Positions 8,686 to 63,461 of a stretch of DNA of 64,000 bases are shown here, one piece after another. Below the pieces are notes generated by a model. The model was not told the origin of the DNA, did not search any database, and saw only the letters and a program-made list of their open reading frames with translations. The DNA is from an uncultured Gammaproteobacteria bacterium (GTDB lineage Bacteria > Patescibacteriota > Patescibacteriia > 2-12-FULL-57-11), in NCBI GenBank assembly GCA_964648865.1, contig CAZYLV010000004.1:2740-66739 (forward strand), read 5' to 3'. A program made the translations under genes and the position numbers. The stretch's first letter is position 1. Each line of letters opens with the position of its first letter.

Positions 8686-10074
8686 TCAGCGGCTGCGCCG
8701 CTCCTCGGACCACTCGATCCCGAAGATGGCCTTCGGGAAGAGCAGCTCGGCGAGCGGCGGCACGTGCCGCTTCTTGTAGTGGCGGTGGTTGATCGGGGAG
8801 CGCTCCAGCACGCTGCGCAGGTAGTTGCGCAAGGTGTCGTACTGCCCCTCGATGTCCCAGCCGTACAGCTTGTGGTTGACTCCGACGACGTCGTAGTCCT
8901 CCGCGCTGTAGGCGTTGGCCATCCGCCGCCGTCGTCCTCCGAGCAGCGGGAAGACGGCCGTGGCCGCGCGGATGCCCGCGGCGCGTTCGGTGGCGTCGCG
9001 GAAGGTCAGGCGGAAGCGCACCAGGTCCGGCAGTTCGGTCGGATCGAGACGGTTCTTGAGCAGCAGCTTCCAGAGGATGGAGCCGAGCTGCTTCTGTCCG
9101 GGATCGAAGGCCACCGGCAGCACCGCGCCGTCCAGCGTCCGGAAGAGCCGGTAGCCGAAGGGCACCTCGCGCAGGCGCTCGCCGTCGCGCGGACGTTCGC
9201 CCGCGTCGAGCAGCCGCAGCGGCCGACACTCCTTCTCGGAGACGCCCACGTGCAGCACGCAGCCCACCACCGTGTCGCGCACGAAGAACATCTCTTCGAG
9301 CCGCAAGGTCAGCAGGTGCGTGATGAGCGCCAGCGGATCCTCCACCGCCAGCCGGCGCAGCTCCTCCTCCCGCATCGTCGGCAGCAGCCCGGCGGCCACA
9401 TCGCGCTTGCTGCGCGCGGCGACGATCCAGGAGAGCACGTGCTCCCCGAGTTGGCGGATGCGCATCTCGATCTCGAAGATCCGCAACGCCAGCACCAGGT
9501 CGCGCCGCAGGGTGAAGGCCACGATGCGCGGGAGCAGGTCGCCCTGTCCGCCGCCGTTGCGCATCACCGGCATCCGACCGAGCTCCACGAGCACCGCGGC
9601 GGGGTCCGCCTCGGCCTCGAGCTTGCCCACCGAGGAGAGCAGGAAACTGCTGGCCTCGGGGATGTGCGCGTCGCGGAAGCGACGGACCTCCTCGCGCGCC
9701 TTGCGGAAGCAGGCGCGCAACTGGACGTAGACCTCCTCGTCGCTGAACCGTCCGTCGATGCCGTAGCTGTCGCGGGCGATCCGCGCGAGGACCGCCGCGC
9801 GTTCGCCGGGGTCGGCCGCGCGCATCCGGTCGGCGAGCATGCGCACGCGCAGCACCTCGTGCTGGAAGTGCTGCGAGAGCCCCAGGCCGCGGCCGCGGCG
9901 GTCCTGGCGCAACGCGCCCATCCCCCGCCGGCTCACCGGCAGGATGGGGGTCAGCAGCACGTCTTCCGGCTCGTCGTCCGCAGGGAGCGCCGGCCGCGTG
10001 CGCGGCGCGACCAGCGGACCGGGTTGATCGAACCGCGGATGGACGGGATCGGCTCGGGTTTCCTCGGTTTCCAA
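8686..10074 (-). CDS. hypothetical protein
   Basis: ORF runs to 10095 (GTG). TTG at 10074 is preferred because it is preceded by AAGGAGG. No recognised domain; codon usage is coding-like. Confidence 0.5.
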   Translation of the reverse strand: METEETRADPVHPRFDQPGPLVAPRTRPALPADDEPEDVLLTPILPVSRRGMGALRQDRRGRGLGLSQHFQHEVLRVRMLADRMRAADPGERAAVLARIARDSYGIDGRFSDEEVYVQLRACFRKAREEVRRFRDAHIPEASSFLLSSVGKLEAEADPAAVLVELGRMPVMRNGGGQGDLLPRIVAFTLRRDLVLALRIFEIEMRIRQLGEHVLSWIVAARSKRDVAAGLLPTMREEELRRLAVEDPLALITHLLTLRLEEMFFVRDTVVGCVLHVGVSEKECRPLRLLDAGERPRDGERLREVPFGYRLFRTLDGAVLPVAFDPGQKQLGSILWKLLLKNRLDPTELPDLVRFRLTFRDATERAAGIRAATAVFPLLGGRRRRMANAYSAEDYDVVGVNHKLYGWDIEGQYDTLRNYLRSVLERSPINHRHYKKRHVPPLAELLFPKAIFGIEWSEERRSR

Positions 10075-10883: not shown

Positions 10884-10912
10884 ACTATACGAAAAAGGGA
10901 CGCGCCCGTCAA
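10884..10912 (-). promoter_or_regulatory. sigma70-type promoter (TTGACG, 17 nt spacer, TATAGT) embedded in the ndk terminator and reading into the 10722/8686 gene pair
   Basis: Minus-strand read: ttgacg ggcgcgtccctttttcg tatagt. Confidence 0.45.
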
Positions 10913-10922
10913 GGGCGCGTGC
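10892..10922 (-). terminator. intrinsic terminator of ndk
   Basis: Minus strand: gacgcgccc-ttgac-gggcgcgtc followed by ccttttt. Confidence 0.5.
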
Positions 10923-10925
10923 GCT

Positions 10926-11384
10926 TCAGCCGTAGATGAACTCGTAGTCGACCTTCTCGTATCGGAACAGCTCCCCCTCCCTGAAGAACCGCGCGATCTC
11001 TGCTTCCGCGTTCTCCGGCGAATCCGAGGCGTGGACCAGGTTCATGGTCCCCATGGACATGTCGCCGCGGATGGAGCCGGCATCCGCCTCGTTGCCGCGC
11101 GTCTTGCCGACGATGATGCGGACCGCGTCCACGCAGGCCGCGCCCTCGAGCGCCATGACCACGACGGGCGCGGACATCATGAACCTCTTGAGCTCCCCGA
11201 AGAACGGCTTGTCCTTGTGGTGGGCGTAGTGCTCGTCGAGATGCAGGTCCGAGAGGGCCATCATCTTCATGCCGATGATCTTGAGCCCCTTGAGCTCGAA
11301 GCGGCGGACGATCTCGCCCACCAGGTTCCGCTGCAGGGCGTCGGGCTTCATGATGACCAGCGTGCGTTCGATGGGGTTTGCCAT
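10926..11384 (-). CDS. ndk: nucleoside diphosphate kinase
   Basis: 152 aa; ERTLVIMKPDALQR...NLVHASDS matches the NDK signature. Confidence 0.9.
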   Translation of the reverse strand: MANPIERTLVIMKPDALQRNLVGEIVRRFELKGLKIIGMKMMALSDLHLDEHYAHHKDKPFFGELKRFMMSAPVVVMALEGAACVDAVRIIVGKTRGNEADAGSIRGDMSMGTMNLVHASDSPENAEAEIARFFREGELFRYEKVDYEFIYG

Positions 11385-13909: not shown

Positions 13910-14056
13910 GTGGCTCACCCTCCTTCACCGCTGTGGCTCACCTCCTCCGGGAACCGCCCCGGATTCGGCTGACCTGTCAAAAGCGGCGTCCTTTCGTTCT
14001 GGATCCCCGTTTCCACGGGGATGACAACGGCAAAACGCCACTTTCAACAACGGCCC

Positions 14057-14085
14057 AATATAGCAGGAAAAGTCCGTTTTGTCAA
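14057..14085 (-). promoter_or_regulatory. sigma70-type promoter (TTGACA, 17 nt spacer, TATATT) for the 13909 gene
   Basis: Minus strand: ttgaca aaacggacttttcctgc tatatt. The -35 hexamer directly abuts the glmS stop codon. Confidence 0.5.
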
Positions 14086-20042: not shown

Positions 20043-20112
20043 ACGTCACCTCCCTTCAGGTTGTTTTTGTTTTGCCCCGCGAAGCGGGGCGGCCTCCTGC
20101 ATCGATGGACAT

Positions 20113-20141
20113 ACTATAGCATAAAAAGAGCCGCTTGTCAA
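20113..20141 (-). promoter_or_regulatory. sigma70-type promoter (TTGACA, 17 nt spacer, TATAGT) for the 20042 gene; the -35 lies in the loop of the upstream terminator
   Basis: Minus strand: ttgaca agcggctctttttatgc tatagt. Confidence 0.5.
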
Positions 20142-32424: not shown

Positions 32425-33693
32425 TCACTTCTTCATGCCCGTCCAGGCGCGGACGGCGGCGAGCAGGTCTGCGCGCGGGAGGAGATCGGCCTTCTCGGCA
32501 CCCCGTTCTTTCCACTCCACGGCATCCTTGGCGAGCGTCTTCTCGGAGACCACGAGCCGGAGCGGGATGCCGATGAGGTCGGCGTCGGCGAACTTCTCGC
32601 CCGGCGCGGCGTCCTCGCGGTCGTCCCAGAGCACCTCGAGACCTGCCGCCTCCACGTCGGCGACGAGCGTCTCCGCGGATGCGGCGACCTCTTCCGGCTT
32701 CTTGCCGCCGATGGACACCAGGTGCACGTCGAACGGCGCCACGCTGCGCGGCCAGACGATGCCCTTGTCGTCGTGATGCACCTCGACGATCGTCCCCATG
32801 ACGCGCGACGGCCCGATGCCGTAGCAGCCCATCAGCACCTCGCGTTTCTTGCCGTCGGCGTCGTCGACCGTGAAGCCGAACGCGTCCGTGAACCGGGACT
32901 TCAACGGGAAGATGTTGCCGACTTCGATGGCCTTGTCGACCTTGATCGTCCCTTCTTTGCAGCTGGGGCAGGCGTCGCCCTCTTTCACCTCGGCGATCTC
33001 CTTGTTCTGGGCGAAGCCGCACTTCCCGCAATGGAAGATGAGGTCCTCACCCGAGTCCGTGAGGACCTGAAACTCGTGGCTGTACTTGGAGAAGACGCCG
33101 CCTGATGCCTCGACGACGAGCGCCTCCAGCCCGCAGCGCCGGTAGACGGCGAGGTAGGCGTCCTTGGCCCGCTCGTAGAACCGCTCGAAGTCCTCTTGCG
33201 TGAGGTGGAAGCTGTAGAGGTCCTTCATCGAGAACTCGCGACCGCGGAGCAGGCCCGACTTGGCCCGCGGCTCGTTGCGGAACTTGTCCTGGATCTGGTA
33301 GACGGCCACCGGCAGGTCCTTGTACGAGCGCACGAACTGCTGCACCAGCGGCGTGACGATCTCCTCGTGCGTCGAGCCGAGCGCGTATTCCTTGCCTCCG
33401 TGGCCCTCGAGCTTGAAGAGCACGTCGATCTCGTCCCAACGGCCGGTCGTAGTCCACGGCTCCTTGGGGGTCAGCGCGGGCATCAGCACCTCCTGCGCCC
33501 CGAGCGCGTCCATTTCCTCGCGGACGATGCGCTTGACCTTATCGAGCACGCGCAAGCCGAGCGGCAGATAGGTGAAGATGCCGGCGGCGAGCTGGTTGAC
33601 GAAGCCGCCCTGCACCAAGAGGCGCGCGTTGGCGGAGTCGGCGTCGTGGGGGGCGGTCTTCCGGGTCTTGGCGAACAGCTGGGAGTAGCGCAT
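32425..33693 (-). CDS. proS: proline--tRNA ligase (short form without the bacterial editing insertion)
   Basis: 422 aa with class II aaRS motifs and a C-terminal anticodon-binding domain. Confidence 0.9.
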   Translation of the reverse strand: MRYSQLFAKTRKTAPHDADSANARLLVQGGFVNQLAAGIFTYLPLGLRVLDKVKRIVREEMDALGAQEVLMPALTPKEPWTTTGRWDEIDVLFKLEGHGGKEYALGSTHEEIVTPLVQQFVRSYKDLPVAVYQIQDKFRNEPRAKSGLLRGREFSMKDLYSFHLTQEDFERFYERAKDAYLAVYRRCGLEALVVEASGGVFSKYSHEFQVLTDSGEDLIFHCGKCGFAQNKEIAEVKEGDACPSCKEGTIKVDKAIEVGNIFPLKSRFTDAFGFTVDDADGKKREVLMGCYGIGPSRVMGTIVEVHHDDKGIVWPRSVAPFDVHLVSIGGKKPEEVAASAETLVADVEAAGLEVLWDDREDAAPGEKFADADLIGIPLRLVVSEKTLAKDAVEWKERGAEKADLLPRADLLAAVRAWTGMKK

Positions 33694-33750: not shown

Positions 33751-34464
33751 TCAGTCGAGCGTGATGACGAGCTCCTGCGCGGGACGCGGGAAGATCTCGT
33801 CGCCGCAGTCGCGCAGCATCAGGCAACGCTCGGTCACCTGCCGGAGCGGCCGGTCCGCGACCCGGACGGTCCAATAGGGATGCAGCTCGACCGGGCCGAC
33901 CAGCCGCGGGGAAGCCTCCCAGCTGCGCCATTCGAGGACGTACTCCTGGACCTCCTCCACGCAGACCTCCATCGGCACGATGCGGATCGGACGCGGCACG
34001 CCCGCGTCCGGACGGTCCGGGACGACGGGTCGCCGTGCGAGCGCCTCCAGGCCGTGGAGGGCGGCGTGCAGGCCGCCGGCGATGGCCAACGCGCCCGCCA
34101 GGGAGAGCGCCACGATGCCGACGGCGATGGCCAGACCTCGCACGAGCTGGAGCGCCGTGGCCGCAGCGGAAGCGACCCTCTCGCAGACCTCCATGGCGAT
34201 CCGCTCGGCCATGGCCCAGACCCCGAGCCGTGTCGCGCAGCGCAGCAGGTCGTTCTCGTAGGCGAGCGACGCGGCGTAGGTCCGCAGCGGCGTCTCGCTC
34301 TCACGGTAGGACTCCCGCGGCTCCGGCGCGGGTCCGCGCTCTCCGGTGAGCGCCGCGTGCCAGCGTGCGGCCGTGACGCTCCATGCGGAGAGCAATCGCA
34401 GATGGGCGATGGCGAGGCCGTGGACGTAGCCCGCCAACGCCTCGCGGAACCGGTTTTCTCGCAC
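33751..34464 (-). CDS. hypothetical membrane protein
   Basis: ORF extends to 34515 (TTG). GTG 34464 is preferred because it is preceded by AGGAGG. Several TM helices in the C-terminal half. Confidence 0.5.
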   Translation of the reverse strand: MRENRFREALAGYVHGLAIAHLRLLSAWSVTAARWHAALTGERGPAPEPRESYRESETPLRTYAASLAYENDLLRCATRLGVWAMAERIAMEVCERVASAAATALQLVRGLAIAVGIVALSLAGALAIAGGLHAALHGLEALARRPVVPDRPDAGVPRPIRIVPMEVCVEEVQEYVLEWRSWEASPRLVGPVELHPYWTVRVADRPLRQVTERCLMLRDCGDEIFPRPAQELVITLD

Positions 34465-34516
34465 GTTCACCTCCTGCCCTGCATCTTCCGAGGAAACCGC
34501 CCCGGCTGTCAACAAA

Positions 34517-34551
34517 AAAAGAGGGTCCTCAGGGACCCCCGGTCGCCGCGC
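34517..34551 (-). terminator. intrinsic terminator of the 34553 gene
   Basis: Minus strand: gggtcc-ctga-ggaccc followed by UCUUUUUUUG. Confidence 0.55.
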
Positions 34552-34552
34552 C

Positions 34553-35089
34553 TCAGATGACGTCGGGCGACGTCGGTACCGTCATCGGCGGGAACGCCGT
34601 CACGGCATCGTCGCAGTCGCGCTCGATGATTCCGAGCGCAGCGTCGAACCCGTCGTAGCACTCCGCGAGCGTGTCATGGCAGTCCCGCAACGCGTCCTGC
34701 TGACCGTCCAGCAGGCCCGCGCTGTCGTCGGCGACCTCCGCGTTCCGCTCGATGCAGGCCGCGACCAGCCGCTCGCTCTCCGCGACGAGCTGCCGCTCCC
34801 GCCGCTCGTCCGTGACGCCGCGGCGCAGCAGGATGAGCCGCCGTGCCGCCTCCAGACAGGGCTGGTCCGTGACCGCGAGGATGTCGCGGATCTCGCTCCG
34901 CAACATCCGGCGCGCGTCGTCCGGCGTCATGCCGGGGAAGCCGACCGGCTCCTCCGGCAGGACCACCAGCACCGAAGCCGACACGGTGCCGGACGACTCC
35001 TGCGGGGCATCGAGCCGTCCGCAGACGAACCCCGCTCCGCATGCGATGCCGACGACCGCGGCGAACCCCCACACTTGTCTCTCTCGCAT
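34553..35089 (-). CDS. hypothetical lipoprotein
   Basis: 178 aa with a signal peptide and lipobox (VVGIACGAG). Translationally coupled to the upstream small ORF. Confidence 0.5.
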   Translation of the reverse strand: MRERQVWGFAAVVGIACGAGFVCGRLDAPQESSGTVSASVLVVLPEEPVGFPGMTPDDARRMLRSEIRDILAVTDQPCLEAARRLILLRRGVTDERRERQLVAESERLVAACIERNAEVADDSAGLLDGQQDALRDCHDTLAECYDGFDAALGIIERDCDDAVTAFPPMTVPTSPDVI

Positions 35090-35101
35090 CTCTCCTCCTC
35101 C

Positions 35102-35239
35102 CTACGGCTCGGCGACGCTCGGCTCGTACGGGGTGCGGTTCTCGTCGCCGCACCGCTGCACGAGGCTGATCGCGCCGATCAAGAGCAGCATGATGACCAC
35201 AAGGGGCCAGTTCAGGTCCGAACCCTTGTCTCTCTTCAT
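35102..35239 (-). CDS. small single-TM protein (45 aa)
   Basis: ATG 35239 preceded by AAGGAGGTGAG. The ORF track extends to GTG 35302. Sequence MKRDKGSDLNWPLVVIMLLLIGAISLV... Confidence 0.35.
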   Translation of the reverse strand: MKRDKGSDLNWPLVVIMLLLIGAISLVQRCGDENRTPYEPSVAEP

Positions 35240-35357
35240 CTCACCTCCTTGGACCGGACGGATGGGCGAGGCGACGCGGGGAGAGTGTGCGCCGCTGCTC
35301 ACGCATCCATCGCGTCCAAGGAAGCCGCTCCTCCGGGAGCACCAGCGGGTGGTGCGC

Positions 35358-35392
35358 CCGGAGAAGAACCGGATACCGCTCCGGTGGGCGTT
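35358..35392 (-). repeat. family-A structured intergenic repeat, copy A4 (terminator-like hairpin)
   Basis: Minus sense cgcccacc-ccgga-gcggta-tccgg-ttcttctcc, directly after the stop of the 35393 gene. Confidence 0.55.
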
Positions 35393-35824
35393 TCACTCCA
35401 TGGCGAGGGACGTCGTGTCCCGACAGATGCGGGACTCCGCCTGCTCGTCGACGCGCCCGTCGCAGTCGTTGTCGACCGCGTCGGAGACCTCGCAGTAGTC
35501 CGGGTGGACGCGCGGATCGCCGTCGTCGCAGTCGCGGCCGCCGCAGGCCACCGAGGCCTCGCCGTCGTTGTCGTCGTCCGCCAACCGGTGGATGCACGTC
35601 CGGCCGCCGCCGATGCACACCTCCCACTCGCAGTCCGAGAGATGGGTGACGGTCGTACCGGGACCGTACTCGCGCACCGCGGCGGCCTCGATGGCCGCGC
35701 GGCGCTCGGCGCGGATGCGCGCGTACTCCGCGGCGCGGCGCGTGACGTACTGGTCGAGCGCGGCACAGCCGCTGCAGGCGACGATGATGGCTGACGCCTG
35801 GAGCAGCACGATGAAGCTCTTCAC
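35393..35824 (-). CDS. lipoprotein with MopE-like putative metal-binding Cys/Asp repeats
   Basis: GTG 35824 preceded by GGAGGG; the ORF runs to 35851. Lipobox IIVACSGC. Repeats of the C-x-D-x-D-x-D-G type (DNDCDGRVDE, CGGRDCDDGD). Confidence 0.6.
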   Translation of the reverse strand: MKSFIVLLQASAIIVACSGCAALDQYVTRRAAEYARIRAERRAAIEAAAVREYGPGTTVTHLSDCEWEVCIGGGRTCIHRLADDDNDGEASVACGGRDCDDGDPRVHPDYCEVSDAVDNDCDGRVDEQAESRICRDTTSLAME

Positions 35825-35911
35825 GTTGGACCCTCCTTCCCAGGCCGCCACCGCACCGCGGTGATGGGCTGGGGAAAGGGCCGGAATGTCGCTTCCGGTG
35901 GGCGATGCGAC
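35825..35911 (-). repeat. family-A structured intergenic repeat, copy A1, carrying an X-type 3' segment shared with B1
   Basis: Hairpin ccggaa-tgtcgc-ttccgg (plus strand 35881-35898), then ccctttcccc, a 10-bp palindrome caccgcggtg and the SD. Confidence 0.6.
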
Positions 35912-36709
35912 TCAGGGCCGCGCGTCGAGGTCGTCAAGCAGCGTGACGCGCGAGAGCGCGATGCGGTCGTAATCGGAGACCGACGCGACCGGCGACCCCA
36001 GCGTGTAGTTGACGAAGAAGGCGTCCTCGACGATCCGCGACCGGAAGCGCGCGCTCGGCGCGAACACCGCGTCGGCGACGGCCGGAGCGATGGGCCGCAG
36101 CACGCCGCCGACATCGACGACGTAGAGCCGGTCCGGGGCGCTTTCCAGGCCGAGGACATAGGTCCCGGGGCGGACCGTGACGTTGCTGCCGGCGAGCGGG
36201 ATGCCGCTGAGCACTTCGCCGGAGACCACCATGACGTGATTGCAGATGTGGCTGCGGACGCCATCCTCGAGCCAGTGGTGCACCGGGCCTGCGGCCGTAT
36301 CTTCGCCGAACCAGGACATCAACTCGATCTCCGAAGGGAAGACATGCCGCCGACCGTCACGTCCGATGACGTAGACCTGATAGCTGCCCTCCCAACGCAC
36401 AAGCGCGCCGGGTGCAAGGTCGCGACCGTCGGACCGCAGGCAGGTGCGGCAGTGGCATCCGCCGCCGATACCCGGGGAGGCCTGCAAGAAGCCGCACACA
36501 GGCGGGCGACCGGGTTCCGGCTCCTCACACCCCGGCGCGGGCGGTCCGGCATCGCTGCCGGCATCCCTTCCCGCGTCCGTCCCGCTGTCGACGGGAAGCG
36601 CCGCGTCCGGCACGCCGACGTCGACCAGATGCGGCTCCGGGCAGGCCGGAGCCGTCCGTGCACCGCAGCCGCTCGTGCTGAACGCGAGCGCGAGAATCAG
36701 GGAACGCAT
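35912..36709 (-). CDS. hypothetical lipoprotein (265 aa) with an Asp/Gly/Pro-rich N-terminal region
   Basis: ATG 36709 preceded by GGAGGAGG. Lipobox LAFSTSGC. Confidence 0.55.
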   Translation of the reverse strand: MRSLILALAFSTSGCGARTAPACPEPHLVDVGVPDAALPVDSGTDAGRDAGSDAGPPAPGCEEPEPGRPPVCGFLQASPGIGGGCHCRTCLRSDGRDLAPGALVRWEGSYQVYVIGRDGRRHVFPSEIELMSWFGEDTAAGPVHHWLEDGVRSHICNHVMVVSGEVLSGIPLAGSNVTVRPGTYVLGLESAPDRLYVVDVGGVLRPIAPAVADAVFAPSARFRSRIVEDAFFVNYTLGSPVASVSDYDRIALSRVTLLDDLDARP

Positions 36710-36790
36710 CGTTTCCTCCTCCCAGACCGTCTCACGTGAGGCGGTCTCGGAAAAGGGCCGGAATGTCGCTTCCGGTGGGCGCCGTGGCCG
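36710..36790 (-). repeat. family-A structured intergenic repeat, copy A2
   Basis: Hairpin ccggaa-tgtcgc-ttccgg (36758-36775) plus a 24-bp palindrome agaccgtctcacgtgaggcggtct (36724-36747) abutting the SD. Confidence 0.6.
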
Positions 36791-37048
36791 TCAGTGCACG
36801 CGGGGGCACGTCCAGGCATCGAGGATCTCCGGACACGGTCGCTCGGACTGCGGGACCGTCCGACGGTCCCATGGGTCGAGCAGGTCGCAATGGAGCTCGA
36901 CCGGCTCGTCCGGCGAGGAGCGCTCCCCCTCCCAGGCGGGCGAGGTGAACAGATGCGGCTCAAGCCACGCCTCGGATGGCCGTGCGGGCCGCGACGGCAC
37001 GCCGCACGCCGCGAGCAGCACCACGGAAAGGAACATGAAACGCTGCAC
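36791..37048 (-). CDS. small lipoprotein (about 86 aa)
   Basis: ORF track runs to 37075, but that ATG lies inside the palindrome. GTG 37048 has GGAGGAG at 6-8 nt and gives M-QRFMFLSVVLLAACG (lipobox). Confidence 0.4.
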   Translation of the reverse strand: MQRFMFLSVVLLAACGVPSRPARPSEAWLEPHLFTSPAWEGERSSPDEPVELHCDLLDPWDRRTVPQSERPCPEILDAWTCPRVH

Positions 37049-37125
37049 GTCTCTCCTCCTCCCAGACCATCTCATGTGAGCTGGTCTCGGAAAAGGGCCC
37101 GATGTCGCTCGGGTGGGCGCTGCCG
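37049..37125 (-). repeat. family-A structured intergenic repeat, copy A3
   Basis: Hairpin cccga-tgtcgc-tcggg (37098-37113) has the stem changed on both sides with the loop conserved. Palindrome agaccatctcatgtgagctggtct (37064-37087) shows a G-C to A-T covariation relative to A2. Confidence 0.6.
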
Positions 37126-37725
37126 TCAGCGGCAGAACAGATCCTCGTCGGTCATACCATCGCAGTCGTTGTCCATGCCGTCGCAGACTTCGACAGACGG
37201 ACCGACTTCACGGATACAGGCGCTCCATCGCCCTGCGGAGCAGGTCTGGACGCCGCGCGCGCACTCGCCGAGGTCCGTGCCGCACAGCTGTGTATCCCCC
37301 TCCATGCAGCTGCAGCCCTCGTCGACCACGCCGTCGCAGTCGTTGTCGAGGCCGTCACAGGTCTCGGCGCCATCCGGGACGCACCCCACGATCTCGATGG
37401 TCGCGAGCGTGGTGACATGCGGACGCGGCGTATCGAGATGCGTTTCGTACGCGGTCACCTCGCCATCCTCCCAACAGACCACCGCCAGGGCGACGGCCGA
37501 GGCGACGATGTTGAACGTCAGGATCGCCAGGGCGTAGTTCCGCCAGCGCCCCGAGGGGTCCGTGGCCCGCACCGCCGCCTTCTCCTCACGGAGGACCTCG
37601 TTGAGCCGCCGCTCCGCCTCGAGCTGGGCCGCCCAGGCATTGCGGTAGTCGTCGTGCGGCTGGGGCGAGAGACGCCGAAGCGTCCAGACCACGGACCGCA
37701 GCAGGAGCATGCGCATCGTGCGCAT
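37126..37725 (-). CDS. membrane protein with C-terminal MopE-like Cys/Asp repeats
   Basis: ATG 37725 preceded by GGAGGGAAG; the ORF runs to 37851. TM helix YALAILTFNIVASAVALAVVCW. Repeats CDGLDNDCDGVVDEG and CDGMDNDCDGMTDED. Confidence 0.55.
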   Translation of the reverse strand: MRTMRMLLLRSVVWTLRRLSPQPHDDYRNAWAAQLEAERRLNEVLREEKAAVRATDPSGRWRNYALAILTFNIVASAVALAVVCWEDGEVTAYETHLDTPRPHVTTLATIEIVGCVPDGAETCDGLDNDCDGVVDEGCSCMEGDTQLCGTDLGECARGVQTCSAGRWSACIREVGPSVEVCDGMDNDCDGMTDEDLFCR

Positions 37726-37860
37726 CTTCCCTCCACTTCTTGTGAGACGAGAGAGGCATCCTCTCCCCCAAACCGCCACCGGAGTGACGGGCTGGGAAAA
37801 GGACGGGAGGGCGTCGAGCCGGGCTCGATGTCCCTCCCTACGGACCGCCACACGTGCGCC
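37726..37860 (-). repeat. family-B structured intergenic repeat, copy B1
   Basis: Long bipartite hairpin gggaggg-cgtcgagc-cgg-gctcgatg-tccctccc (37805-37838). It shares gggctggg-aaaagg and the downstream X segment with A1. Confidence 0.55.
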
Positions 37861-39318
37861 TTACGGCCCGGCGGGCATGTCGTGGTTGTACCAGTAGAGC
37901 CAGCCGGAGGTCTCGTCGATCTCCGCCGGGTCGATCGTCGCCGGATCGGTCGGCACGACGACGTATCCGCTCGTCCAGCCCAAGTCGACCTCGCACGAGC
38001 CGCTGTAGTCGCGACGGAACACGCTGTACGACGAGCACAGCAGTCCGCCCCAGGCGAAGCGCACGGACGGGTCCGTGCCGATGTCCCGGATCGTCCACTG
38101 GCGGTCGGCGACGCCGTAGCGGCGCACGCCCGTCGCGAGGTCCACCCAGCTGACCATCGTCCCGGGACGGGCACCGACCTGCTCGACCGTCGCCGTGAGG
38201 CGCGCGGCCGCGTAGGTCTCGTCCGGGACGACCACCGCGTTGGCGCAGATGGTGTACGGATGCCATCGCGGGTCCGGCGGGAACCGGAACCAGTCGATGA
38301 ACTCGCGCATGGAGCGGAACTCGAAGATCCTCTGGGGGATTTCGAGATCCGTCCCGTAGCGGAGCGTCGGGTCGCTGACCGTGCGGAAGAGCCCGCTCGG
38401 CCGCGCATCCGGGCTGGCCGCGTACCAGGGCTCCGGCCCGCGCACCACACCCTCGCAGCGCGGGGTGCCGCCACCCGGGTCCTCGGCCAGACGCAGCAGG
38501 CCGTGCTCCGGTACGTCGATGTACCGGCCGACCTGCGGACAACCGATGAAGTTCGTGCCGCTCTCGGCGTCCGCGACGCTTCCGATGGGAAGCGCCCACT
38601 GCAGCGCGCGGCTGCGGTAGACCTCGGGATCGGCGAACGTGATGTAGATGACCACGTCCTCCGTGTACCAGGTGCTGCCGTCGGTCGGCGGTGCGACAGG
38701 GACGGCGATGCCGTCCGTGGCGAGCGCCTCGGCGGTCACGTCCTGGACGAGGACCGGCGGAAGCCGGACGTCGTCCACATGCACGCGAATCCGGAAGAGA
38801 TCGTCCGGGTCGCCGGCCCGCAGCTCGGGCCGGATGCGCAGGGTACGGACGTCCGTGGGGCCGAACAGCTCGACCCACAGGAAGTAACCGTCCTCGTTCC
38901 ACGGCTCACGCTCGCCCGTGCACCGCGTGTAGGGCATGGCCGCGTACGTGCCACCCTCCGGGACGACGCTCTCGCAGGACAGCGGCTGCTCGCAGAACGA
39001 GAGCAGGTCCTGGTAGTCCCGCGGATCACGGGGCGCCTCGACCTCACGCGTGTGGTGGCAGTCGCCGCCTTCGCAGGCGTCGACCGTCTCCGCGTCGCCG
39101 TCGTCGCAGTCGGCCACGCTCGTGCACAGGCCGGCCTCGACGGTCCGTTCGTGGTTGCAGAAGCCGGAGTCGGCCTCGCACCAGTCGAGCGTCTGGTCAT
39201 CGCGGTCGTCGCATTCGGCGTCCGCCTCGCAGCCGACCATCTCGTGGATGATCTCGATCCGCTCCGTGGAACAGGCCGAAATCAGCGCGGCGCTCACCGC
39301 ACACAGAAGCATCCGCAT
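37861..39318 (-). CDS. lipoprotein (485 aa) with N-terminal Cys/Asp-rich repeats and a large C-terminal domain of unknown function
   Basis: Start at the in-frame M44 (ATG preceded by AAGGAGGA); the ORF track extends to 39447. Lipobox LISAC. Repeats CEADAECDDRDD, CDDGDAETVDAC. Confidence 0.6.
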   Translation of the reverse strand: MRMLLCAVSAALISACSTERIEIIHEMVGCEADAECDDRDDQTLDWCEADSGFCNHERTVEAGLCTSVADCDDGDAETVDACEGGDCHHTREVEAPRDPRDYQDLLSFCEQPLSCESVVPEGGTYAAMPYTRCTGEREPWNEDGYFLWVELFGPTDVRTLRIRPELRAGDPDDLFRIRVHVDDVRLPPVLVQDVTAEALATDGIAVPVAPPTDGSTWYTEDVVIYITFADPEVYRSRALQWALPIGSVADAESGTNFIGCPQVGRYIDVPEHGLLRLAEDPGGGTPRCEGVVRGPEPWYAASPDARPSGLFRTVSDPTLRYGTDLEIPQRIFEFRSMREFIDWFRFPPDPRWHPYTICANAVVVPDETYAAARLTATVEQVGARPGTMVSWVDLATGVRRYGVADRQWTIRDIGTDPSVRFAWGGLLCSSYSVFRRDYSGSCEVDLGWTSGYVVVPTDPATIDPAEIDETSGWLYWYNHDMPAGP

Positions 39319-39450
39319 CGCTTTCCTCCTTGTTGTACAGAACTGCCGATGACTTGAGGGCGTTTCCCACCGTGGGAAGCGCTCTCGAGAAATCGGGGGA
39401 GGTCGCCGTCGAGCCGGGCTCGACGGACGCCTCCCCGAGAGGCGCACGGA
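39319..39450 (-). repeat. family-B structured intergenic repeat, copy B2
   Basis: ggggagg-tcgcc-gtcgagc-cgg-gctcgac-ggacg-cctcccc plus a second hairpin gcgtttccc-accgt-gggaagcgc and a shared cgatgacttgagg segment. About 85% identical to B3. Confidence 0.55.
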
Positions 39451-40053
39451 CTACGGGCCATCCGCGTCGAGGAGGTTGTCCACCTCGCGCAGCAGGTCCT
39501 CCGGCGCCATCGTCCCGTCGAGATCGATGACGCCCGGCAGGAAGCGCGTGGGCAGCACGTGCACGCGGTGCTGACGGTCGCTCGTCGGCGCGTAGGCCCG
39601 CACCTCCGCCTCGGTCTTCCGTCGTCCCTCGCGGATGTCTCGAGGGATGCGACGCGCGAGCCGCTCCTCGTCCGTGAGGTGGATGTAGAACTTCCGCGCG
39701 GAGAGCGGAGCCTCCACGTGCAGCGCCAGCGCCCCCTCGAGGACGACCATCGGGGCCGGGGCGATGACCTCGATGCCGCTCGGCTCCGACGTGCGCATGT
39801 CGTAGACCGGCACCTCGGCGGACGCGCCGGCCGCGAGCGTCCGGAGAGCCACGGCGCAGCACTCGAGGTCGATGGCCCGCGGGTCGATCCACTCGTAGGG
39901 CTCACCGCGCGCCTCCGCCGCCTGCTTGTGGCGCAGTCCGCGGTACCAGCGGTCCAAGGTGACGACCGTCGCACCGAACCGCTTGGCCATGAGGGCCGCG
40001 AGCGTCGTCTTGCCGCAGCCGGCGCCGCCGGCCAGGATGACGATGTCTGTCAC
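39451..40053 (-). CDS. uridine kinase / phosphoribulokinase-family P-loop kinase
   Basis: GTG 40053 preceded by AGGAAGGAGAG; the ORF track extends to 40461 through an Arg-rich artefact. ILAGGAGCGKTTLA Walker A motif; about 200 aa. Confidence 0.7.
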   Translation of the reverse strand: MTDIVILAGGAGCGKTTLAALMAKRFGATVVTLDRWYRGLRHKQAAEARGEPYEWIDPRAIDLECCAVALRTLAAGASAEVPVYDMRTSEPSGIEVIAPAPMVVLEGALALHVEAPLSARKFYIHLTDEERLARRIPRDIREGRRKTEAEVRAYAPTSDRQHRVHVLPTRFLPGVIDLDGTMAPEDLLREVDNLLDADGP

Positions 40054-40175
40054 TGTGCTCTCCTTCCTGGGAATACGTCGATGACTTGAGGACGTTTCCC
40101 TTGTGGGGAACCGCACTCGAGAAATCGGGGGAGGACGCCGGTCGAGCTGGGCTCGACAGACGCCTCCCCGCCTCC
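40054..40175 (-). repeat. family-B structured intergenic repeat, copy B3
   Basis: ggggagg...gtcgagc-tgg-gctcgac...cctcccc (40128-40169) plus the hairpin cgtttccc-ttgtg-gggaaccg. Confidence 0.55.
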
Positions 40176-40382
40176 TCACTTGCCCTTGATGGCCTTGCCC
40201 AGCGCTGCGATGGCGCGACCGAGCAGGATGAAGGGCCAGCCGAAGATCCACCGCACGATGCGCATGTAGAAGCGCATCACCGCGGTGCTCCAGGCGTCTC
40301 CGCCCAGGATGTTGGCCACCCCGGCGGACATGACCACGGTCAAGAGCAGGATACCGAGCACCGGTCCGACCAGCTGTTCCAT
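40176..40382 (-). CDS. small two-TM membrane protein (68 aa)
   Basis: ATG 40382 preceded by GGGAGG. Sequence MEQLVGPVLGILLLTVVMSAGV...WIFGWPFILLGRAIAALG. Confidence 0.4.
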   Translation of the reverse strand: MEQLVGPVLGILLLTVVMSAGVANILGGDAWSTAVMRFYMRIVRWIFGWPFILLGRAIAALGKAIKGK

Positions 40383-40593
40383 CACGTCCTCCCGTCGCCC
40401 TCCGGAAGAGAGCGGCGGCAGGAAGCGACAACGCGGCCGGCCGGTCACCTGTGCGGGCCATGGGAAAGCACGGGTGACGCGGCGCGACCGCGCGGTTCGG
40501 GCCAGACTGGGCCTGCAGCTCTCCCCAGAGACGCGGTTCCCAAAGAACGGCCCAAGATAACGGAAAAGCCGGGTCGTGTCAACCCGGCTTCCC

Positions 40594-42402
<1,809 letters not shown>

Positions 42403-47632: not shown

Positions 47633-48322
47633 CTACCATCCTTTGACGGCGATGGCCTGCTCGGCCGCGGCCACTTGGGCCTCCTGCTTGCTCGTGCCCT
47701 CGCCTTTGGCGACGAGCTGGTCGCCGAGGAACACGCCTACCACGAAGCGCTTGGCGTGGTCCGGGCCGGTCTCCTCGAGCACGCGATAGCTCGGCGTCAC
47801 GCCGAGACGCTCCTGGGCCGCCTCCTGGAAGCGGCTCTTGGGATCGACATACAGCTGATGTTCCAGGATGTAGGGCAGGCGCGAGAGCAGCGTCCGACCG
47901 ATGAAGTCGCGGCAGGACTCCATCCCCTGGTCGAGATACAGCGCGCCGACGACGGCCTCGTAGGCGTTGGCCAGGATCTGCAGGCGCGCCTTGGAGCCGG
48001 TGTCCTTGGCTTCGCCGCGGGAGAGGTACAGATGCCGTTCGACGTCGAGCGCGCGGGTCACCTCCCCGAGCATCGTGGCGTTGACCAGCGCGGAGCGCCA
48101 GGTCGTGAGTTCGCCTTCGGGGTTGGGATAGTTCCGGTAGAGGTGTTCGGTGACGACGAGCTCGAGCACCGCATCGCCCAGGAACTCCAGCCGCTCGTTG
48201 TGGTCGAGCGGGAAGTCGGGGTGCTCGTTGAGGTAGGAACGGTGGACGAGGGCCTGACGGAGCAGCTCCGCGTCGCGGAAGGTCGCGCCGAGGGACTGCT
48301 GGAGGACGTCGAGATCGGTCAT
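47633..48322 (-). CDS. rnc: ribonuclease III
   Basis: 229 aa with the [12 protein letters not shown] signature and a C-terminal dsRBD. Confidence 0.92.
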
Positions 48323-49282: not shown

Positions 49283-51766
<2,484 letters not shown>

Positions 51767-61985: not shown

Positions 61986-63461
61986 ATGGCACTAATCGAT
62001 CGAGAGGAGGTTCTGAAGGTGCTTCGCGGATTCAATCCTTGGTGGGCCACTGGGAAAATTCCCGACTCCTTTCTCAAAAAACTGAAGAGAACACCATACT
62101 TTGAGGTGGAAAAGATACTCGACGTCGCTGGACTAAAGAGAGCGATTGTTTTGTCCGGTCCCAGACGAGTTGGGAAGACGACGATTTTGTATCAAATCGC
62201 CAACTCGGCGATTTACGAAAGACGGATTCATCCGTCGCAGGTGCTCTATCTAACCCTTGAACATCCGGTGCTGAAGCTGATGCCTATCGACGAGATCCTC
62301 AACATTTACGACCAAGAGATTGCTCCGTCCGGCAAAGAAAAGTGGGTGCTCCTAGACGAGCTCCAATACATTGATGAGCCGACTAAATGGCTGAAGATTC
62401 TGGTCGACCAGCACCCCGACTGGAAAATTATCGTCACCGGATCGGCAAGCATAGTTTTTCGATCGAAGGACAAGGAGTCTGGAGTCGGACGGTGGGTTAC
62501 TGTTCTGGTACCACCGTTGTCCTTCTACGAGTACATCGCCCTGAGACATGAAGAGCATAAAAATAATGTTACACCTCCAGAGATTCCTGAGGATGTAAAC
62601 CCTCTAAACCTTGGCGCTCTCAATTCGCGCGACCGACAACAGCTACTAAGCCAACTCAAACCGCTAAAAAGAGAGTTCAATACCTATCTACTTCAGGGCG
62701 GCTTCCCCGACACGGCACTTCAAGAAGACCTTTCACTCGCACAACGGCTGCTCAGAGAAGACATCGTCGACAAGGTTCTAAAGAGAGACATGGCAGCGTT
62801 TTATGGTGTGAGGAAACTACAAGAACTGGAGCGCCTCTTCGTTTACCTTTGCATCCACAATGGCGAGGTCGTAAACGAGCAAACAATCAGCAATGAGCTT
62901 AACATCAGTCGTCCGACAGTATCGTCACTTCTGAGAAACCTTGAAGGGGCACACCTTATAAGGCCATTGAGCGGACTATCCCTAACAGGGAAGAAGGCGT
63001 TGAAGGGGCGTGTCAAATGGTACCTAACTGACCCATCAATCAGAAACGCGGTTCTCCTTAGGGGAACAGAAATGTTGAATGATCCACGGGATTTGGGGAT
63101 GGTCGTAGAATCAGTGGTAATTAACCAGTTGGCCACATACTCGTACCCCACCAGGCCTAGGCTTGGTTATTGGAAAGACAGGAAGGGTCGTGAGGTGGAC
63201 CTAATCATTGATGCACCGACAAAAAAACGTGTTGCGGTTGAGGTTAAGTATCGAGAGGATCCGAGAATCAGCTCTGACGATGGAATGACTAGATACCTTG
63301 AGGGCAATCCGGATGCCCAAGGCATTGTTGTTACTAAAGACGCTGAAGACTTTGAGACCCAGGCAGCAAATAACGGACAATGGTCTGTAACCTTAATCCC
63401 AGCATACGTCTTTCTCTATATCTTGGGGCATTTTGAACGCCGTAGACATAAGAAGGTTTGA
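61986..63461 (+). CDS. AAA+ ATPase of the AAA_14/DUF4143 (COG1373) family
   Basis: 491 aa with Walker A GPRRVGKTT, Walker B WVLLDELQ and a C-terminal DUF4143-like region. Local GC is about 48% against about 70% in the flanks. Confidence 0.8.
   Translation: MALIDREEVLKVLRGFNPWWATGKIPDSFLKKLKRTPYFEVEKILDVAGLKRAIVLSGPRRVGKTTILYQIANSAIYERRIHPSQVLYLTLEHPVLKLMPIDEILNIYDQEIAPSGKEKWVLLDELQYIDEPTKWLKILVDQHPDWKIIVTGSASIVFRSKDKESGVGRWVTVLVPPLSFYEYIALRHEEHKNNVTPPEIPEDVNPLNLGALNSRDRQQLLSQLKPLKREFNTYLLQGGFPDTALQEDLSLAQRLLREDIVDKVLKRDMAAFYGVRKLQELERLFVYLCIHNGEVVNEQTISNELNISRPTVSSLLRNLEGAHLIRPLSGLSLTGKKALKGRVKWYLTDPSIRNAVLLRGTEMLNDPRDLGMVVESVVINQLATYSYPTRPRLGYWKDRKGREVDLIIDAPTKKRVAVEVKYREDPRISSDDGMTRYLEGNPDAQGIVVTKDAEDFETQAANNGQWSVTLIPAYVFLYILGHFERRRHKKV

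Follow-up and report, generated by a model that had tools for sequence, protein, structure and literature searches.

A repeated two-hairpin intercistronic module in a nine-gene lipoprotein operon of an Uhrbacteria-like bacterium

The 64,000-nucleotide (nt) stretch of contig CAZYLV010000004.1 analysed here (the window, G+C ~68%) contains a run of genes at 34.5–40.6 kb that lies on the minus strand only, and the long spacers between these genes carry a common two-hairpin module. Each copy has a first hairpin (hp1) close behind the upstream stop codon, a pyrimidine tract with a U-rich core (the U tract), and a larger second hairpin (hp2) whose base joins that same tract to a purine tract, usually the Shine-Dalgarno (SD) sequence of the next gene. 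The module is confined to one nine-gene operon, is conserved in three related lineages with compensatory changes in its helices, and has an hp1 that descends from a transcription terminator. We put at roughly 55% the probability that it is a cis-acting RNA module that would punctuate the operon, by combining leaky terminator-derived hairpins with hairpins predicted to occlude the SD.

The original prediction had described four such spacers, A1 to A4, and all four are present in the minus sense, with consensus and covariance-model scores far beyond chance. A 33-nt consensus with up to three mismatches matched at 35872–35904 and 36749–36781, where 100 shuffles gave an expectation of 0. The covariance model R1, run with filters off, scored A2 at 88.3 bits (E 8e-21), A3 at 78.3 bits (E 3e-18), A1 at 77.2 bits (E 6e-18) and A4 at 41.8 bits (E 9e-9). 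Three copies had been said to carry ccggaa-gcgaca-ttccgg, which is a miscount: only A1 and A2 do, the hairpin of A3 being cccga-gcgaca-tcggg and that of A4 (a)ccgga-gcggta-tccgg(t). A 24-bp palindrome noted in A2 and A3 does exist, and its G-C to A-T covariation between the two copies is real (position 6 paired with 19 of the 24-mer), but it is not a separate element: it makes up the top of hp2, at whose base the ccuuuucc tract pairs with the SD, a pairing that had been overlooked. R1 also detected a fifth copy (IG-3) at 37726–37860 (29.4 bits, E 1e-5) with a different and longer first hairpin. Two more related spacers, at 39319–39450 (IG-2) and 40054–40178 (IG-1), have the same longer hairpin as IG-3. 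The two-hairpin module is present in every operon spacer of at least 77 nt.

Exact-protein look-ups led to syntenic loci of two related lineages, which together with the window give 14 module copies. In unconstrained minimum-energy folds of the sense RNA, all 14 copies formed hp1 and an hp2 in which U tract and purine tract are paired. In the window copies, hp1 begins 7–22 nt past the stop codon and is followed, after a spacer of 1–4 nt, by the pyrimidine tract YCCUUUU(U)CC. This tract provides the 5' strand of the basal hp2 helix, and the purine tract GGRAG(N)GAGG provides the 3' strand. hp2 is an irregular helix of 17–26 bp with conserved internal mismatches and a predicted stability of −21 to −37 kcal/mol at 37 °C, or −32 to −50 kcal/mol at 15 °C. 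The hp1 of A-type copies is weak, with 5–6 bp stems of −7 to −9 kcal/mol. In eight of the 14 copies, among them A1, A2 and A3, the next gene has this purine tract as its SD. For the genes after A1 and A2 the computed probability that the SD is paired is 0.91 and 1.0, compared with mostly 0.1–0.6 at other strong-SD starts of the window, an estimate that is noisy across the window, with start codons picked crudely, and serves as weak support. Some minimum-energy folds also contained a candidate closing helix from the box upstream of hp1 to the start-codon region, short and inconsistent between folds. A pseudoknot between the GCGACA loop and downstream sequence was considered and dropped, since the complementary sequence is absent.

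The A-type copies, like all modules of the window, lie on the minus strand. In A3 (37049–37125) the box CGCCCACC is at 37112–37119 and hp1, CCCGA-GCGACA-UCGGG, at 37098–37113; hp2 (37054–37097, −27.7 kcal/mol) has a base in which CCUUUUCC pairs with GGAGGAGG, the SD of an 85-aa lipoprotein gene (GTG 37048). A2 (36710–36790) has its box at 36774–36781, hp1 CCGGAA-GCGACA-UUCCGG at 36758–36775, and an hp2 (36714–36757, −28.7 kcal/mol) that contains the SD of a 265-aa lipoprotein gene (ATG 36709). A1 (35825–35911) has its box at 35897–35904 and hp1 at 35881–35898, and the base of its hp2 (35831–35880, −30.1 kcal/mol) holds the SD GGAAGGAGGG of a 143-aa MopE lipoprotein gene (GTG 35824); the upper stem of this hp2 is longer and of different sequence. 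A4, taken together with an extra hairpin, spans 35240–35392, with the box at 35383–35390 and hp1 ACCGGA-GCGGUA-UCCGGU at 35368–35385. Its hp2 (35328–35366) pairs CUUCUCCGGG with CCCGGAGGAG, a tract that resembles an SD but is not the real one, and the U tract has decayed to UUCUUCUCC with pairing nonetheless retained. The real SD of the following 45-aa gene (ATG 35239), CCAAGGAGG, is paired with CUUCCUUGG at the base of the extra hairpin, hp3 (35244–35324).

The three B-type spacers lie further upstream in the operon. IG-1 lies between a 68-aa membrane protein gene and a PRK-like kinase gene; its hp1, GGGGAGG...CCUCCCC at 40128–40169, is followed by CGAUUUCUC and a second hairpin (40079–40127), with the SD outside the hairpin base. 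IG-2, between the kinase gene and a 485-aa lipoprotein gene (lipo485), is a direct repeat of IG-1, with hp1 at 39396–39436 and hp2 at 39347–39395. The PRK/uridine-kinase-like gene therefore lies between two direct repeats of ~105 nt, each comprising the long hairpin, CGAUUUCUC and the second hairpin. It looks as if the kinase gene was inserted along with a junction copy, and the related locus L008 has neither the kinase nor the small membrane protein gene. IG-3, between lipo485 and a gene for a 199-aa protein with MopE-type Cys motifs, has hp1 at 37805–37838 and hp2 at 37759–37803, in which UCCUUUUCCC is paired with GGGGGAGAGGA. A third hairpin (37749–37766) is able to compete for the same purine tract, and the real SD, GGAGGGAAG, lies further downstream. 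The IG-3 purine tract is predicted to have two alternative partners, the U tract and a downstream CCUCUC tract; the latter otherwise pairs over the real SD, and the predicted fold moves to the CCUCUC pairing when the U tract is blocked in silico.

Of the two related lineages, the closer one (L004–L007) has a ProRS (prolyl-tRNA synthetase) 93% identical and a 265-aa protein 82% identical to those of the window, and the more distant one (L008/L009, from the Hainich aquifer) has corresponding values of 84% and 59%. The module architecture is the same in all 14 copies. The genes, each bounded by modules, vary by lineage. L005 has an additional gene (861–1295) for a 144-aa protein without a signal peptide, and L008 has different genes at two positions; its genes include one for an unrelated 270-aa lipoprotein and, elsewhere in the operon, one for a weak homologue of the 85-aa protein (9056–9868 and 10912–11232). 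Across the three lineages the proteins of the cluster are 43–85% identical, as against 80–93% for flanking housekeeping proteins.

Compensatory changes support both hairpins across these related sequences. In a MAFFT alignment of the seven A-type modules, hp1 is 100% paired and three of its six pairs have changed on both sides; four different stems (CCGGAA, CCCGA, CUGGGA and (A)CCGGA) bear the loops GCGACA, GCGGUA or GCGUUA. In the same alignment hp2 is 87.5% paired, with three pairs changed on both sides, whereas slid registers give 37–61% pairing. In a hand-made alignment of the 13 distinct copies, 88% of the cells of the basal and lower hp2 helix are paired (44–69% in slid registers) and six of 15 pairs have changed on both sides, among them one from C-G to U-A that joins the U tract to the SD strand; neither the observed pairing nor the covariation score was reached in any of 500 shuffles. 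The hp3 fold of A4 is kept in a related lineage through a G-C to A-U change. The basal hp2 helix contains invariant G·U pairs, and the sense strand out-folds the antisense strand in nine of the 14 copies, with a mean advantage of 2.9 kcal/mol. These two features, together with the differing upper-stem sequences, favour an RNA structure over a DNA operator.

We treat the nine genes from ~40.55 kb to 34.51 kb as one operon because the stretch has one promoter and one canonical terminator. The promoter, TTGACA-17-TATCTT, is of the sigma-70 type (40554–40582, minus strand; pattern scan and sequence) and is the sole sigma-70-like site that the scan found in 32–41 kb; its −35 hexamer sits within the loop of the bipA terminator hairpin. 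The terminator, GGGGGUCCCUGAGGACCCUC followed by U7 (34514–34540, minus strand), is the only canonical intrinsic terminator that the pattern scan found in the operon stretch. The scan gave no promoter-like site between these two or downstream of any module, and neither it nor inspection by eye yielded a match to extracytoplasmic function (ECF)-type or sigma-70 promoters inside the modules. None of the small open reading frames (ORFs) in the spacers is conserved.

Several observations link hp1 to terminators. The real terminators of this genome, judged from the 3' flanks of well-supported window genes, have an 8–14 bp GC stem followed by U4–7; often there is U4 only, then CC, and several end in CUUUUCC, including that of bipA just upstream of the operon. 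The module U tract has the same form (U3–5), but stands behind a C-rich spacer of 1–4 nt and, in the A type, also behind a weak stem. Two outgroup loci (L097 and L098) carry a monocistronic lipo485 homologue, 54% and 45% identical, that has its own TTGACA promoter and ends in a GGGG...CCCC+UUCUUUC terminator opposite a convergent gene. The long B-type hp1 after lipo485 in the window can be aligned with this terminator by position and, in part, by sequence. Given the outgroup terminator at the hp1 position and the shared form of the U tract, hp1 and its U tract are, on these comparisons, derived from a terminator, and we conclude from the same sequences that the operon grew by genes appended behind retained, weakened terminators. 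The original prediction had set the repeats against independent terminators. It is borne out insofar as homologous, structured copies with compensatory changes did not arise as terminators independently of one another; to deny them a terminator nature was too strong, since hp1 and the U tract are laid out like the genome's real terminators and have a positional homologue in the outgroups.

The distribution of the module is narrow. With filters off, R1 found copies in the 64-kb window only at 35317–37813. In 865 kb of loci from 80 ProRS relatives it found none besides those in L004/L005 and L008/L009, all of which are inside the syntenic operon; the ProRS-found metagenome loci without copies do not exceed 70% ProRS identity, and the GC content of most is much lower. 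Eight further loci also gave no match: those of more distant homologues of the 265-aa protein (L090–L094), L095 (71% ProRS identity) and the lipo485 homologues L097 and L098. In all, ~1 Mb of related sequence outside the syntenic operon contained no copy. An exact pattern of box, loop and U tract, searched in 185,579 species genomes, returned two chance matches only, in Ancylobacter and Micromonospora, both within coding sequence and forming no hairpin, and it had no match in viral contigs. Rfam 15 at gathering scores recognised three tRNAs only in the window, and relaxing the threshold to E 5 for 34400–40700 added one spurious lncRNA match; by this comparison the module matches no curated RNA family. 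Two further A-GCGNNA-U hairpins occur in coding sequence on the minus strand, GCGGA-GCGAGA-UCCGC at 34886–34901, in the last gene of the same operon, and CGCGGA-GCGCUA-UCCGCG at 51426–51443. Both are probably chance matches (7–10 bits with R1). On sequence evidence the element is thus local and lineage-specific and not a genome-wide mobile repeat. Motif and covariance searches of the kind suggested in the original prediction, made on the window and the related loci, turned up no genuine copies outside the operon, and they did reveal conservation in the syntenic operon of the relatives.

In the mechanism that we favour, hp1 with the pyrimidine tract would attenuate transcription leakily, protect the 3' end or do both, without stopping transcription completely. 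Wherever transcription continues past it, the tract would be reused as the 5' strand of the hp2 base. Because its partner, the purine tract, is in most copies the next gene's SD, the downstream ribosome-binding sites are predicted to be locked in helices of −21 to −37 kcal/mol, and translation would need an opening event. According to the computed energies, hp2 is too stable to open spontaneously. Candidate openers are RNase III cutting hp2, a factor that binds over hp1 plus U tract, or ribosomes coming from the preceding cistron. Downstream expression would then depend on both the frequency of readthrough and the opening of hp2.

A number of points weigh against this mechanism. Both termination and SD occlusion are predictions, and no hp1 meets the criterion of the terminator scan. 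Six of the 14 purine tracts are distinct from the real SD; they lie 40–110 nt upstream of the start codon, and further hairpins come after them. Any terminator tail rich in U will match a purine-rich SD through its composition, and the pairing could be partly incidental. The 13-copy hp2 alignment was fitted to the structure by hand and its sequences are interrelated, which makes it supportive and not conclusive. Finally, between the closest lineage pair, spacer identity (0.76–0.92) is about that at four-fold sites (0.70–0.83 over six genes; 1.0 for the 45-aa gene). Selection on the spacers is, in these sequences, clear only versus the more distant lineage (0.72, against 0.53–0.59 at four-fold sites), and the comparison covers three related lineages.

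The main competing explanation takes the modules to be relics without function, ex-terminators and 5' leaders copied with each gene that was appended or duplicated, which would resemble each other through recent duplication and gene conversion, with the U-tract:SD pairing a compositional by-product. Such an account, which we regard as possible though unlikely, fits the terminator origin of hp1, the neutral-looking divergence between the closest lineages and the six purine tracts that are not SDs. It also fits the near-identity of A1 and A2 (32 of 33 nt over hp1 plus flanks), which, as the orthologous copies of the sister lineage are not alike, suggests gene conversion. It does less well with the substitutions that keep pairing in hp1, hp2 and hp3, with the pairing that A4 retains despite the decay of its U tract, with the excess of spacer identity in the more distant comparison, and with the persistence of long spacers in an otherwise compact genome. 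The modules may instead be intercistronic processing sites at which RNase III would cut hp2 and free the downstream SD, leaving hp1 as a stabilising 3' hairpin. By analogy with known sites this has a small chance of being right and would be compatible with the favoured mechanism, for which it would supply the opening step. An irregular helix of hp2 length between cistrons with conserved mismatches, an hp1 immediately 5' of it, a predicted stability that precludes spontaneous opening and an RNase III gene in the window (47636–48322, minus strand) all speak for it, but the A2-type helices are near the lower length limit of RNase III substrates.

We consider it doubtful that the box CGCCC(A/C)C and the GCGNNA loop of hp1 form the binding site of a putative RNA-binding protein co-regulating the cistrons. 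The box is kept in 10 copies, including one (L5_2) whose hp1 is replaced by a different hairpin, and loop positions 1–3 and 6 are invariant over four different stems; however, neither is more conserved than the shallow divergence predicts, and B-type copies without box and loop occupy equivalent junctions. A bolder idea, and in our judgement an improbable one, is that of a portable junction cassette, copied each time the fast-evolving surface-lipoprotein operon gains, loses or reshuffles a gene, with box and GCGNNA hairpin as the operator of a putative RNA-binding regulator or nuclease that would unlock all buried sites at once; if so, a regulon would be built into a single mRNA. Least credible is a dispersed mobile element of the repetitive extragenic palindromic (REP) or miniature inverted-repeat transposable element type, or a palindrome serving as DNA operator of a dimeric regulator, both of which the original prediction had entertained. 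The palindromic structure, the several copies between non-paralogous genes and the differing gene content between modules among lineages would suit it, but all window copies that R1 finds lie in a 2.5-kb stretch of the 64 kb, none lies outside the operon in the relatives, and the exact pattern has no genuine copy in the species-representative genomes or viral contigs. The inverted repeats are imperfect in a conserved, G·U-specific manner. The palindrome varies in sequence among copies while keeping its pairing, has a conserved internal mismatch and continues into an 8–10 bp helix with the invariant G·U pairs that links the U tract to the SD, which together indicate an RNA hairpin rather than a DNA operator.

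Among the closest known systems are hairpins that sequester the SD, which include fourU-type RNA thermometers and the inhibitory intergenic structures of translational coupling (such as in the operon coupling model of PMC4538824). As in these, the module has an upstream U/C run that pairs with the SD at a hairpin base before the start codon, and an intergenic position inside an operon. Unlike other SD-sequestering systems, the same module recurs at at least five junctions of one operon. Its anti-SD strand lies 25–40 nt beyond the upstream stop codon and thus out of reach of a terminating ribosome. With fourU and ROSE thermometers it shares a U run that pairs with the SD in a 5' hairpin, but a thermometer must be marginally stable if it is to melt at physiological temperature, and hp2 (−21 to −37 kcal/mol at 37 °C) lies far above such stability; this reading was rejected. 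The genes downstream of the modules encode lipoproteins and not heat-shock proteins.

Like intrinsic terminators and attenuators, the module has a GC-rich stem-loop followed by UUUU(U)CC, the tail of the genome's bona fide terminators, and hp1 is the positional homologue of a real outgroup terminator. It differs from them in being operon-internal, with no promoter downstream and no transcription-unit end, in the C-rich spacer before the U tract and the short A-type stems, and in the reuse of the U tract as a strand of the next hairpin. REP elements and bacterial interspersed mosaic elements (BIMEs) of enterobacteria are short imperfect palindromes just 3' of stop codons in operons and can stabilise the upstream mRNA. 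hp1 is likewise a short imperfect palindrome that forms a hairpin, but the modules are restricted to the operon in the window and L008, have a CCCA or CCCC foot in place of GTAG, come with no sign of a RAYT gene in the 64 kb, and are bipartite with the SD included. In phage T7, irregular hairpins akin to one another recur from cistron to cistron along a polycistronic mRNA as RNase III sites. hp2 resembles them as a ~20-bp irregular intercistronic hairpin in a genome with an RNase III gene, and a cut would leave a 3' hairpin upstream; here, however, the host is cellular, the hairpin base contains the SD and cleavage is hypothetical.

Integron attC arrays likewise place structured repeats between co-oriented promoterless genes, with gene content that varies among relatives, as is seen here. 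An attC array was rejected: the module ends have no R'' (RYYYAAC) or R' (GTTRRRY) core sites, no intI is adjacent, the Pfam calls for the neighbourhood include no recombinase, with housekeeping genes (bipA and proS) as flanks, and the G·U pairs of the module point to RNA and not single-stranded DNA. In our rating the element is a cis-acting mRNA structure between cistrons that unites features of intrinsic attenuators, of SD-sequestering hairpins and possibly of T7-like processing sites.

Knowledge of gene regulation in the Candidate Phyla Radiation (CPR, or Patescibacteria) is very limited, and the locus offers a concrete cis-element there. Former terminators have seemingly been reused as operon-internal punctuation coupled to a strong predicted occlusion of ribosome-binding sites, and the locus illustrates how an operon may grow by appended units of gene plus junction. 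The secreted lipoproteins of this variable operon probably make up the cell surface of a bacterium reliant on other cells. With a distribution limited to three related lineages, the general importance of the element is modest.

All nine genes of the operon are on the minus strand and encode, in order, the 68-aa membrane protein, the PRK/uridine-kinase-like protein, lipo485, the 199-aa protein with MopE-type Cys motifs, the 85-aa lipoprotein, the 265-aa lipoprotein, the 143-aa MopE-motif lipoprotein, a 45-aa membrane peptide and a 178-aa protein. Five consecutive genes, from that of the 85-aa lipoprotein to that of the 178-aa protein (34553–37075), share a reading frame, as do those of the 485-aa and 199-aa proteins (37126–39450); the spacers are open, with single stop codons between genes. 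The shared frame is probably a coincidence in a GC-rich genome and is not conserved in the sister-lineage sequences. Stop-codon readthrough, or a hairpin like a selenocysteine insertion sequence (SECIS), was rejected because spacer lengths in the sister lineages are not multiples of three (e.g. 101, 88 and 154 nt).

From its sequence the host is an Uhrbacteria-like CPR bacterium; in the protein collection, relatives of its ProRS carry the labels Candidatus Uhrbacteria or Patescibacteria. The 265-aa protein is encoded on an NCBI contig of 89.5 kb and on a Logan contig identical to it. The operon is flanked by bipA and proS, and the surrounding housekeeping synteny is conserved in relatives, with gyrA, L32, nusB, rnc and bipA on one side and proS, HU, ymdB, rny and truB on the other; the RNase Y gene, like that of RNase III, is within the window. 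The ProRS gene (32425–33693, minus strand) has its own promoter and a terminator on either side, and encodes a short bacterial-type enzyme of 422 aa that is probably without the editing insertion, as in other Patescibacteria. Compact terminator-promoter fusions occur at 40593–40554, the operon promoter, and also at 14046–14085 and 20102–20141 (minus strand). In these, the TTGACA −35 element of a promoter close to consensus lies in or beside the terminator loop of the upstream gene and the U tract falls inside the promoter spacer; two of the fusions share GGGCCGTT immediately 3' of the −10 hexamer. Near the end of the window, a 491-aa ORF with the P-loop motif GPRRVGKT (61986–63461, plus strand) lies in a stretch at 62–64 kb with a G+C content of 52.5%, compared with ~68% for the window, and the ORF may have been acquired horizontally.

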